From NCBI RefSeq assembly GCF_003334785.1, contig NZ_QOWV01000006.1: a stretch of 64,000 nt of DNA. One strand, written 5' to 3'. Shown here one piece after another: positions 14,295-16,717 of the stretch (the first letter of the stretch is position 1; every line of letters starts with the position of its first letter). Both the position numbers and the translations under genes were made by a program. This DNA is from Escherichia coli. Its GTDB lineage: Bacteria > Pseudomonadota > Gammaproteobacteria > Enterobacterales > Enterobacteriaceae. The notes below the pieces were generated by a model, which did no database searches, was not told the DNA's origin, and saw only the letters and a program-made list of their open reading frames with translations.

Positions 14295-14735
14295 TTACGG
14301 ATTCACAAACGTCGCTTTTACCCGCGACGAGCGTTTGAAATAGGGGACGATCAATGCGGTTGCCAACAAAGTAAACAGCAACTGGCGAACGGCTATGCCA
14401 TCTTCCACGGGTGAAAAAGCGAATGCTTTTACTGCCAGCAATACGGAAATAAGCAGCCAGATAATATAGTGTTTAGGAACACAACGCCGACGTTTAAAGA
14501 AAGCGATGGTCAACCACAGTGTGTAATACCACAAGGCGATAGCGGTAATAAAAGAAACGCCCCATAAGATTTGTGTCGTCAGTGCTTGTCCGCCGAGCGT
14601 TTGAAATGTTTGCGGAGAAGATAACGCAGCGGTATACAGCAACAACGCCAGCGTCGTACTCAACAGAGCGACTAAAAGCCAGGCCAACGGGCCAAGCAAC
14701 CAGCCTCCAATACGTTGTGGCGTTGTGGTGGTCAT
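14295..14735 (-). CDS. ydgK: Inner membrane protein YdgK
   Basis: Hydrophobic ORF; 146 aa from MTTTTPQ (ORF track extends to 14759). Confidence 0.8.
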   Translation of the reverse strand: MTTTTPQRIGGWLLGPLAWLLVALLSTTLALLLYTAALSSPQTFQTLGGQALTTQILWGVSFITAIALWYYTLWLTIAFFKRRRCVPKHYIIWLLISVLLAVKAFAFSPVEDGIAVRQLLFTLLATALIVPYFKRSSRVKATFVNP

Positions 14736-14820
14736 AGGTTCTCCAGAATAGCGACGCAAACAGGCAAATCTAATTTTAGGGGCGTTATTATAAGGCTTTT
14801 ATAACCGATCGCTACTTTCT

Positions 14821-15036
14821 TTATTGGACATAGTGCCAGACGGACTTCGGTACCTGGCCGAGGTCAAACAAACGCCCGCCAGAAACCAGCTCTGCGCGAC
14901 GGTGATCGGCAGCACGATACATATTGATCAGTTCCTGATCGTCCGTCAGGGTGTAATTAAGATGGTCGTAGAGTTTTTCCAGACTTTCGAGTGAACTGAT
15001 TTTGCGAAATTTTAATAAGTAGTCCTGAACAGTCAT
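14821..15036 (-). CDS. cnu: Hha-family nucleoid-associated protein Cnu (YdgT)
   Basis: 71-aa ORF, recognised Cnu. Confidence 0.9.
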
Positions 15037-15308
15037 AAAAGGTCCATAAAATAATTAATACCAAAGGGGTAGGTATTATTAGTGATGATAAAATTTCACC
15101 AAAAGTGAACGCTTGTGTTATTACAATAATAAGAATGCGCTGATGGCAAATATTCAGGGATGAAAAACTGCTCTGAAAAGAGTAACGCGCTTTACTATCC
15201 CTGACAATCACCAACAACATCGAACAAGATAATAAATTCCTGGTTTAATATCCGACAAGTGAAAACATGCACCCGGACGGGCAGCATGTCGCTCCACAAG
15301 TGCAGAGC

Positions 15309-15434
15309 TTACTTGTGTTGTACCGAAGCACTCTGTTCAGGTGGCTGATAGTTGTCAATGTGACTCGCCACGCCAAGAAGAATGACTGAAACGACAAGAA
15401 CGATCCAACCTGTTAATTCAATAAGACGATTCAT
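15309..15434 (-). CDS. blr: Small membrane protein Blr (41 aa)
   Basis: MNRLIELTGWIVLVVSVILLGVASHIDNYQPPEQSASVQHK, embedded in the 66-aa track ORF 15309-15509. Confidence 0.75.
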   Translation of the reverse strand: MNRLIELTGWIVLVVSVILLGVASHIDNYQPPEQSASVQHK

Positions 15435-15676
15435 TACAGCCCACATCTCTCTTGATTGATCCATTAACTTCAGGGGGTAAATGTTACTTAGCAATAATAG
15501 CTCCAGCAAGATTTTTACTGAGGTTTTTGCGATATTTAGCTTTTGTCGTTGGAAAATTCGCTATTTTTTTGACTTAAGTTAAACAACATCCCTTATTGCT
15601 GGCAGGTTATTAAACTGTTGAGCGTGGGTAAAGGATAGTGTCAAATAGCCATCATACTTCAATGAGAGGCAATGAC

Positions 15677-16717
15677 ATGAGCGACAACATCCGTGTTGGG
15701 TTGATTGGGTATGGTTATGCGAGCAAAACCTTCCATGCGCCCCTGATTGCGGGCACGCCCGGGCTGGAACTGGCGGTAATCTCCAGCAGTGATGAAACAA
15801 AAGTAAAAGCCGACTGGCCAACGGTTACGGTTGTCTCTGAGCCGAAGCATCTGTTTAACGATCCCAACATAGACCTGATTGTCATTCCTACACCCAACGA
15901 TACCCATTTACCGTTAGCCAAAGCGGCGCTTGAGGCGGGTAAACATGTGGTCGTTGATAAACCCTTTACCGTGACACTGTCACAAGCGCGAGAGCTGGAT
16001 GCGCTGGCAAAAAGCCTGGGGCGTGTGCTGTCTGTATTCCATAACCGTCGCTGGGATAGCGATTTCTTGACGCTAAAAGGTTTACTCGCGGAAGGCGTGC
16101 TGGGTGAAGTTGCTTACTTTGAGTCTCATTTTGACCGCTTCCGTCCGCAGGTGCGCGATCGTTGGCGTGAACAGGGCGGCCCAGGCAGCGGTATCTGGTA
16201 CGATTTAGCACCACATCTTCTTGATCAGGCCATTACGCTTTTTGGTTTACCGGTCAGCATGACGGTAGATTTGGCACAGTTACGGCCCGGAGCGCAGTCG
16301 ACCGATTATTTCCACGCCATCTTGTCCTATCCACAGCGGCGAGTCATTTTACACGGTACCATGCTGGCAGCCGCTGAGTCAGCACGGTATATCGTGCATG
16401 GATCCCGAGGCAGTTATGTGAAATATGGCCTCGATCCACAGGAAGAACGTCTGAAAAATGGCGAGCGTCTACCGCAGGAAGACTGGGGCTACGATATGCG
16501 TGATGGCGTACTTACCCGCGTGGAAGGTGAGGAACGTGTCGAAGAAACGCTGTTGACGGTGCCTGGGAATTATCCGGCTTACTATGCGGCTATTCGTGAT
16601 GCGTTAAATGGCGATGGTGAAAATCCGGTTCCGGCAAGCCAGGCAATCCAGGTAATGGAGTTGATTGAGCTGGGCATCGAATCCGCCAAACATCGCGCGA
16701 CTTTGTGCCTTGCATGA
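15677..16717 (+). CDS. ydgJ: Putative Gfo/Idh/MocA-family oxidoreductase
   Basis: N-terminal Rossmann motif GLIGYGYAS; 346 aa from MSDNIRVG. Confidence 0.9.
   Translation: MSDNIRVGLIGYGYASKTFHAPLIAGTPGLELAVISSSDETKVKADWPTVTVVSEPKHLFNDPNIDLIVIPTPNDTHLPLAKAALEAGKHVVVDKPFTVTLSQARELDALAKSLGRVLSVFHNRRWDSDFLTLKGLLAEGVLGEVAYFESHFDRFRPQVRDRWREQGGPGSGIWYDLAPHLLDQAITLFGLPVSMTVDLAQLRPGAQSTDYFHAILSYPQRRVILHGTMLAAAESARYIVHGSRGSYVKYGLDPQEERLKNGERLPQEDWGYDMRDGVLTRVEGEERVEETLLTVPGNYPAYYAAIRDALNGDGENPVPASQAIQVMELIELGIESAKHRATLCLA
15971..15983. other. matS-consensus site (GTGACACTGTCAC) inside ydgJ
   Basis: Exact match to the MatP-binding consensus GTGAC-RNY-GTCAC; the window lies in the Ter region (TerB and tus are present). 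Confidence 0.55.

Follow-up and report, generated by a model that had tools for sequence, protein, structure and literature searches.

Our analysis confirmed that the feature is the chromosomal blr gene of Escherichia coli, which is already known and is correctly placed. It lies at 15309-15434 on the minus strand of a 64,000-nucleotide stretch of E. coli DNA, the whole of which is called the window below. With respect to the organization of the locus, we consider it very likely that blr is a single-gene unit with a conserved weak promoter and its own terminator, that the 41-aa start lies at ATG 15434 inside a 66-aa open reading frame (ORF), and that the ancestral start is ATG 15446. The only new point concerns the last of these: a family-wide start four codons upstream of the annotated one, an apparent migration of the start in Escherichia, and inconsistent annotated lengths.

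In the scenario that we favor, blr would be a single-gene transcription unit extending from a promoter at 15509..15481 to a terminator hairpin at 15289..15259, and it would give rise to a small inner-membrane protein with one transmembrane helix and an SHIDNYQPP tail. Translation in E. coli would open inside the 66-aa ORF at ATG 15434 (41 aa), with the ancestral family start four codons upstream at ATG 15446 (45 aa). In the branch comprising Escherichia, Salmonella, and Citrobacter, residue 5 would have changed to Met, creating a second start, and it is to this second ATG that initiation appears to have shifted in Escherichia; K-12-type strains may keep some 45-aa protein. We propose only tentatively, with somewhat less than even confidence, the most specific version of this history, in which the start has migrated from an ancestral M-[TSA]-[SAGT]-[IV]-[IF]-N-R... 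protein of 45 aa, K-12-type strains make two forms, and O157:H7-type strains make the 41-aa form only, via an ATG-TGA allele.

The blr gene, its neighbors, and its product

The enclosing entry in a mechanical ORF list spans 15309..15509, encodes 66 aa, and begins with TTG. Within it, the blr frame MNRLIELTGWIVLVVSVILLGVASHIDNYQPPEQSASVQHK comprises 41 codons, from ATG 15434..15432 to TAA 15311..15309 on the minus strand. Two further in-frame ATGs stand between TTG 15509 and the 41-aa start, at 15464 (MDQSREMWAV-, 51 aa) and at 15446 (MWAV-, 45 aa). The gene and its neighbors are as follows.

15309..15434, minus strand: blr coding sequence as annotated in RefSeq, 41 aa plus TAA, placed by exact mapping of the RefSeq coordinates, matches to NF033231 and PF24673, and codon periodicity
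14821..15036, minus strand: cnu/ydgT, neighbor of blr, from RefSeq features
15677..16717, plus strand: ydgJ, neighbor of blr and divergent from it, from RefSeq features

The earlier note, made from the sequence alone, had recognized blr as a 41-aa protein with a single transmembrane segment in the cnu-ydgJ spacer and had proposed a comparison with the annotated gene. That comparison gives agreement base for base: RefSeq genomes that are 100% identical over 15100-15700 carry "blr, division septum protein Blr" (WP_001300888.1) at exactly 15309-15434, with cnu/ydgT (minus) and ydgJ (plus) on either side. The description of the protein is borne out by this match, by two family models, and by one hydrophobic peak. 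The 41-aa form scores 91.8 bits against the NCBIfam equivalog model small_Blr (NF033231; cut-off, 40), with model positions 1-40 of 40 covered, and it matches the whole of the Pfam model Blr_divisome (PF24673; positions 1-41 of 41, E = 5e-25). The 66-aa ORF scores 90 bits against NF033231 (cut-off, 40), and its matched residues are 27-66 only. There is no difference between blr here and Blr (b4409) of E. coli K-12, which is the same gene, with the same 41-aa length (WP_001300888.1), at the same cnu/ydgT-ydgJ locus.

Of 5426 complete E. coli genomes, all but one (5425) contain the 601-base region 15100-15700, with 95-100% identity. One assembly labeled K-12 matches the ydgJ side of the query only and may lack blr. 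Beyond E. coli, Blr homologues occur in a subset of Enterobacteriaceae, namely, Escherichia, Salmonella, Citrobacter, Enterobacter, Lelliottia, Leclercia, Kosakonia, Phytobacter, Pseudescherichia, and a few others. Searches with two peptide patterns, which diverged members could escape, returned no bona fide locus in Klebsiella, Serratia, or Yersinia.

A genome collection supplied one orthologous locus for each of 73 species, and with the E. coli locus analyzed here added, 74 loci were compared in codon register. For 71 species loci, the entropy per site averaged 0.33, 0.16, and 1.20 at codon positions 1, 2, and 3, respectively, over core codons 2-33. This pattern argues that blr is translated and under purifying selection. 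Comparison of 20 diverse members shows 15 columns without any variation (R, E, L, G, S, L, A, H, I, D, N, Y, Q, P, and P); HIDNYQPP, directly C-terminal to the hydrophobic segment, is invariant, and the protein carries both conserved Blr motifs, N-R-x-x-E-L-x-G-W and S-H-I-D-N-Y-Q-P-P. Synteny is likewise conserved across the species loci, with ydgJ divergent upstream in 73/73, cnu downstream in 68/73, and ydgK in 70/73. The reading of this ORF as a chance open frame in a noncoding intergenic spacer could draw on its very short length, its want of a strong Shine-Dalgarno (SD) sequence, and its position in a spacer formerly taken as intergenic. It is nevertheless scarcely credible and appears already refuted by the comparative data, given the third-position variation and strong purifying selection across 71 species, the invariant motifs, the conserved synteny, and the matches to curated family models; the genetics and cell biology of Blr in the literature stand against it as well.

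The hydropathy profile of Blr (Kyte-Doolittle, 19-residue window) has a single peak of 2.46, at LIELTGWIVLVVSVILLGV; therefore, one transmembrane helix is predicted. The protein is laid out as a short N terminus (MNRLIE), this helix, and a C-terminal tail opening with the invariant SHIDNYQPP. Substrates of the intramembrane protease RseP are generally oriented N-in/C-out. Blr, as one of these substrates, would by analogy have the same orientation, so that SHIDNYQPP would lie in the periplasm beside the membrane.

With respect to function, PMC12350097 credits Wong et al. (2000) with the description of blr as an "intergenic" gene for a 41-residue membrane protein that alters susceptibility to peptidoglycan-synthesis inhibitors, and Karimova et al. 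(2012) with that of Blr as a component of the cell division machinery. PMC12350097, PMC10470546, and PMC7648144 summarize the effect of Blr on beta-lactam susceptibility and describe the protein as recruited to the division septum and as thought to stabilize the divisome under stress. RseP cleaves Blr in vivo and in vitro, and the Blr constructs in that work bore N-terminal tags, according to PMC12350097 and PMC10470546. By two-hybrid analysis, Blr interacts with 7 of 12 divisome proteins, a number in which the authors of the DrpB study suspect an overcount of partners (PMC7648144). As described in the same paper, YmgF (72 aa) and DrpB/YedR resemble Blr in being small, nonessential inner-membrane proteins reported to be divisome associated by the same two-hybrid approach, and DrpB gave little or no two-hybrid interaction with Blr. 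Neither has a sequence relationship to Blr, and both are functional analogues only. A full-text literature search on the Blr peptide string returned no match.

Putative promoter, leader, and terminator

Three elements were assigned to the putative transcription unit.

15504..15509, minus strand: putative -35 hexamer TTGCTG, from a phylogenetic footprint, matching the consensus at 3/6 positions; its TTG is the start of the 66-aa ORF
15481..15486, minus strand: putative -10 hexamer TAACAT, which reads TAACAT in 53 loci and TAAAAT in 7
15259..15289, minus strand: intrinsic-terminator-like hairpin ACATGC-tg-CCCG-tc-CGGG-t-GCATGT followed by TTTTCA, with the core stem from a scan and the extended stem read from the sequence

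A promoter-like pair, TTGNNN-17 nt-TAA(C/A/T)AT, occurs in 61 of the 74 loci, and 6 more loci have TAC(T/C)AT. The pair stands at a fixed distance from blr, and the spacer within it is not conserved. A generic scan for sigma-70 promoters gave none directly upstream of blr, with TTGCTG scoring only 3/6. We propose TTGCTG-17-TAACAT (15509..15481) as a putative weak but conserved promoter of the sigma-70 type, with a predicted transcription start for blr at approximately 15470-15476. At the other end, the terminator-like hairpin (15289..15265) begins 20 nt past the blr stop codon, and the presence of a hairpin and TTTTCA after blr suggests a single-gene transcript. An Rfam scan of 14700-15800 at E<=1 returned a chance snoRNA-like match only and no known RNA element.

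The predicted 5' leader also contains a 6-2-6 DNA palindrome, ATTTATGGATAAAT, which falls at 15455-15468 on the minus strand here and some 20-35 nt upstream of the conserved ATG in loci of other species. This palindrome hardly varies among Citrobacter, Salmonella, Enterobacter, Lelliottia, and Leclercia, and its E. coli version is degenerate (GTTAATGGATCAAT); it includes the ATG behind the 51- and 53-aa pipeline calls. It looks like a candidate protein-binding operator rather than coding sequence. Farther upstream, approximately 70-95 nt from the conserved ATG, a block shared by Citrobacter, Salmonella, Enterobacter, and Lelliottia, GAAA(C/T)CGTTCCC(A/G)A, closely precedes the -35 hexamer. The block is absent from Escherichia, which has CGCAAAAACCTCAGTAAAAATC in its place, and this suggests a regulatory input that is missing in Escherichia.

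The start of translation

The following elements bear on the choice of the start codon, in addition to the annotated ATG at 15434.

15444..15446, minus strand: in-frame ATG four codons upstream of the annotated start (position -4), giving MWAV plus Blr (45 aa), conserved in the family and a possible second start
15462..15464, minus strand: in-frame ATG ten codons upstream of the annotated start, giving the 51-aa reading and judged not to be a start
15441..15453, minus strand: weak SD-like stretch AAGAGAG-ATG-TGG, better placed for ATG 15434 than for 15446

That blr is easily mis-called, as had been claimed before, is evident from the 66- and 68-aa entries in E. coli and from orthologues annotated at 41, 45, 51, and 53 aa. 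The further claim that the true start is internal holds for the 66-aa ORF. In E. albertii, E. whittamii, two further Escherichia species, and a divergent strain labeled E. coli, TAG occupies codon -5, directly before the ATG equivalent to 15446; therefore, the upstream codons cannot belong to the protein in those five loci. TTG 15509, for its part, coincides with the conserved -35-like TTG. Within the ORF, two internal ATGs compete for the start, the annotated one at 15434 and the family-conserved one at 15446, and this qualifies the claim.

That the longer proteins are nonetheless real, with 66 aa from TTG 15509 or 51 aa from ATG 15464, is very improbable in our assessment, even though the frame is open in E. 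coli, some pipelines give 66-68 aa for E. coli and 51-53 aa for Salmonella, Citrobacter, and Enterobacter, and an ATG opening "MD(K/Q)" recurs in many species. The start at ATG 15464 was rejected on account of the TAG that separates it from the gene in the five non-reference Escherichia loci, and the recurrent "MD(K/Q)" ATG of Salmonella, Citrobacter, and Enterobacter was rejected as well, as it is AAG in 7 species and is followed by stops or frameshifts before the gene in others. Codons -10 to -5 have no codon periodicity (entropy of 1.24/1.52/1.35), and the conserved bases there are those of the DNA palindrome, which suggests a noncoding element. Pairing with the anti-SD sequence ahead of ATG 15464 is negligible (-0.5 kcal/mol). 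The start of the 66-aa ORF was rejected because its TTG is that of the conserved promoter-like -35 hexamer; lying within this putative hexamer, approximately 35 nt upstream of the predicted transcript, TTG 15509 is probably untranscribed, as far as the promoter footprint can tell.

Turning to the two ATGs that remain, the codon equivalent to 15446 is ATG in 73 of the 74 species-level loci. At the annotated start position, ATG is found in 28/74, the other codons being ATT (22), ATC (13), TTC (7), TTT (2), ATA (1), and GTC (1). Residue 5 of the 45-aa protein is thus I, F, or V, not M, in 46/74 loci, and the 41-aa form is impossible in these 46 loci because that residue is not Met. In 19 loci, no in-frame ATG, GTG, or TTG other than the -4 ATG occurs from the upstream stop to the membrane segment. 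Kosakonia, Phytobacter, Pseudescherichia, and their relatives have AGGGAG or AAGGAG upstream of this ATG, with anti-SD duplexes of -7.4 to -9.0 kcal/mol in the Kosakonia/Phytobacter/Pseudescherichia group that mostly end 6-11 nt before it.

The codons between the two start positions also look as if they encode protein. Their entropy by codon position is 1.26/0.42/1.25 for the three codons together; codon -1 always has a middle T (V/I/L), with every one of the four Val and three Ile codons in use, and codon -2 always encodes S, A, G, or T. In genera with both ATGs, the changes within MxxV are mostly synonymous and at third positions (TCG/TCA/TCT, GTA/GTG, GCT/GCA, and GGA/GGG). These changes and the family-wide conservation of the upstream ATG speak for continued production of the 45-aa form in many of the species having both ATGs. 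Since the -4 ATG is present in 73/74 loci and the codons between the starts are coding-like, the ancestral family protein would have had 45 aa. On this comparative evidence, the ancestral family start is the -4 ATG, and the Met at residue 1 in E. coli is best read as a derived Ile-to-Met change at residue 5. The two start positions are interchangeable in Citrobacter amalonaticus as well: in one strain, codon -4 is AAG and codon +1 is ATG, and in the others, these codons are ATG and ATC, respectively.

The same conservation, the status of the upstream ATG as the only start-type codon in 19 loci, the strong SD sequence ahead of it in the Kosakonia/Phytobacter group, the protein-like constraint on MxxV (invariant middle base of codon -1, small residue at codon -2), and the synonymous third-position changes in genera with both ATGs could be taken to mean that the main product in the present strain is also the 45-aa protein (MWAVMNRL...) from ATG 15446, with the annotated start no more than an internal Met and the length in RefSeq and the literature four residues short. 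Indeed, we had first favored the upstream ATG as the true E. coli start on the strength of its conservation in 73/74 loci, and we lowered this assessment after finding TGA variants within E. coli. Three main alleles emerge when 5401 complete E. coli genomes are sorted by queries of 66 and 40 bases around both ATGs; 400 of these genomes, O157:H7 included, read ATG TGA GTT GTA ATG, with a stop right after the upstream ATG. In genomes with the TGA allele, blr is intact, and the 41-aa product (WP_001296096.1) is that of a strain without the TGA. Because of these alleles, ATG 15434 must be able to initiate on its own, unless Blr has been silently lost in 7% of E. coli.

The local signals weigh against the 45-aa product in E. 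coli as well. The SD-like signals of both ATGs are weak; the anti-SD duplex for ATG 15434 amounts to -6.1 kcal/mol and ends 6 nt before the ATG, and that for ATG 15446 amounts to -3.5 kcal/mol with 0 nt spacing, the SD-like AAGAGAG abutting this codon (0-2 nt). Other Escherichia species have no SD sequence at all before the upstream ATG. The Trp at codon -3 in Escherichia departs from the small-residue pattern of the family, and its TGG supplies the G-run of the SD-like site. Finally, the C. amalonaticus locus with AAG in place of the upstream ATG uses the downstream ATG. Taken with the TGA alleles, these points make a mainly 45-aa product in this strain unlikely, though well short of negligible. 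We infer the choice of 15434 over 15446 in this strain from comparative and thermodynamic evidence, by which the annotated 41-aa start at 15434 works in E. coli and would do so in this strain. In K-12-type strains, among them the present one, a minor 45-aa form may also be made.

Two further observations concern the start region. The ATG-TGA of 400/5401 E. coli genomes (e.g., O157 644-PT8, equivalent to 15446-15432) constitutes a start-stop unit of minimal length, located 7 nt upstream of the blr start; this unit might modulate blr translation via termination and re-initiation; strain KV7 carries an intermediate allele, ATG TGA GCT GTA ATG. The 66-base start region is absent from 25 of 5426 E. 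coli genomes.

Annotated lengths and the surroundings of blr

There is little at stake here for wider biology, and the earlier placement of the gene agrees with the reference annotation. The practical value is one of annotation hygiene, as Blr is databased at 41, 45, 51, 53, 66, and 68 aa. The public mis-calls include a cluster of 34 members at 66 aa, named "beta-lactam resistance family protein," and an entry of 68 aa named "hypothetical protein." Our comparisons favor a length of 41 aa for E. coli and of 45 aa for most genera; by the same comparisons, the 66- and 68-aa E. coli calls are untenable and the 51- and 53-aa calls unlikely. The Blr orthologues of Salmonella, Citrobacter, Enterobacter, Lelliottia, Leclercia, and Kosakonia have the same core, NR[LI][IV]EL.GW ... 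SHIDNYQPP, and share synteny and the promoter-like motif with E. coli, whereas their annotated lengths differ (41, 45, 51, and 53 aa). The NF033231 and PF24673 models and the E. coli annotation open at a Met that is absent from most other genera, which would start four codons earlier. If this is true, the models and the E. coli annotation lack the first four residues of the ancestral protein, and the lengths of 51 and 53 aa annotated for Salmonella, Citrobacter, and Enterobacter are overestimates. For work on small proteins, the locus offers a natural example in which stops in sister species and variants within a species resolve a start difference of four codons.

Two observations were made in the surroundings of the gene. 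In E. coli strain J6, IS1A is inserted in the blr-ydgJ intergenic region, approximately 220 nt upstream of blr. On the minus strand, ydgK is another longest-ORF overcall, with 154 aa from TTG (14295-14759) versus 146 aa in RefSeq (441 nt, 14295-14735).
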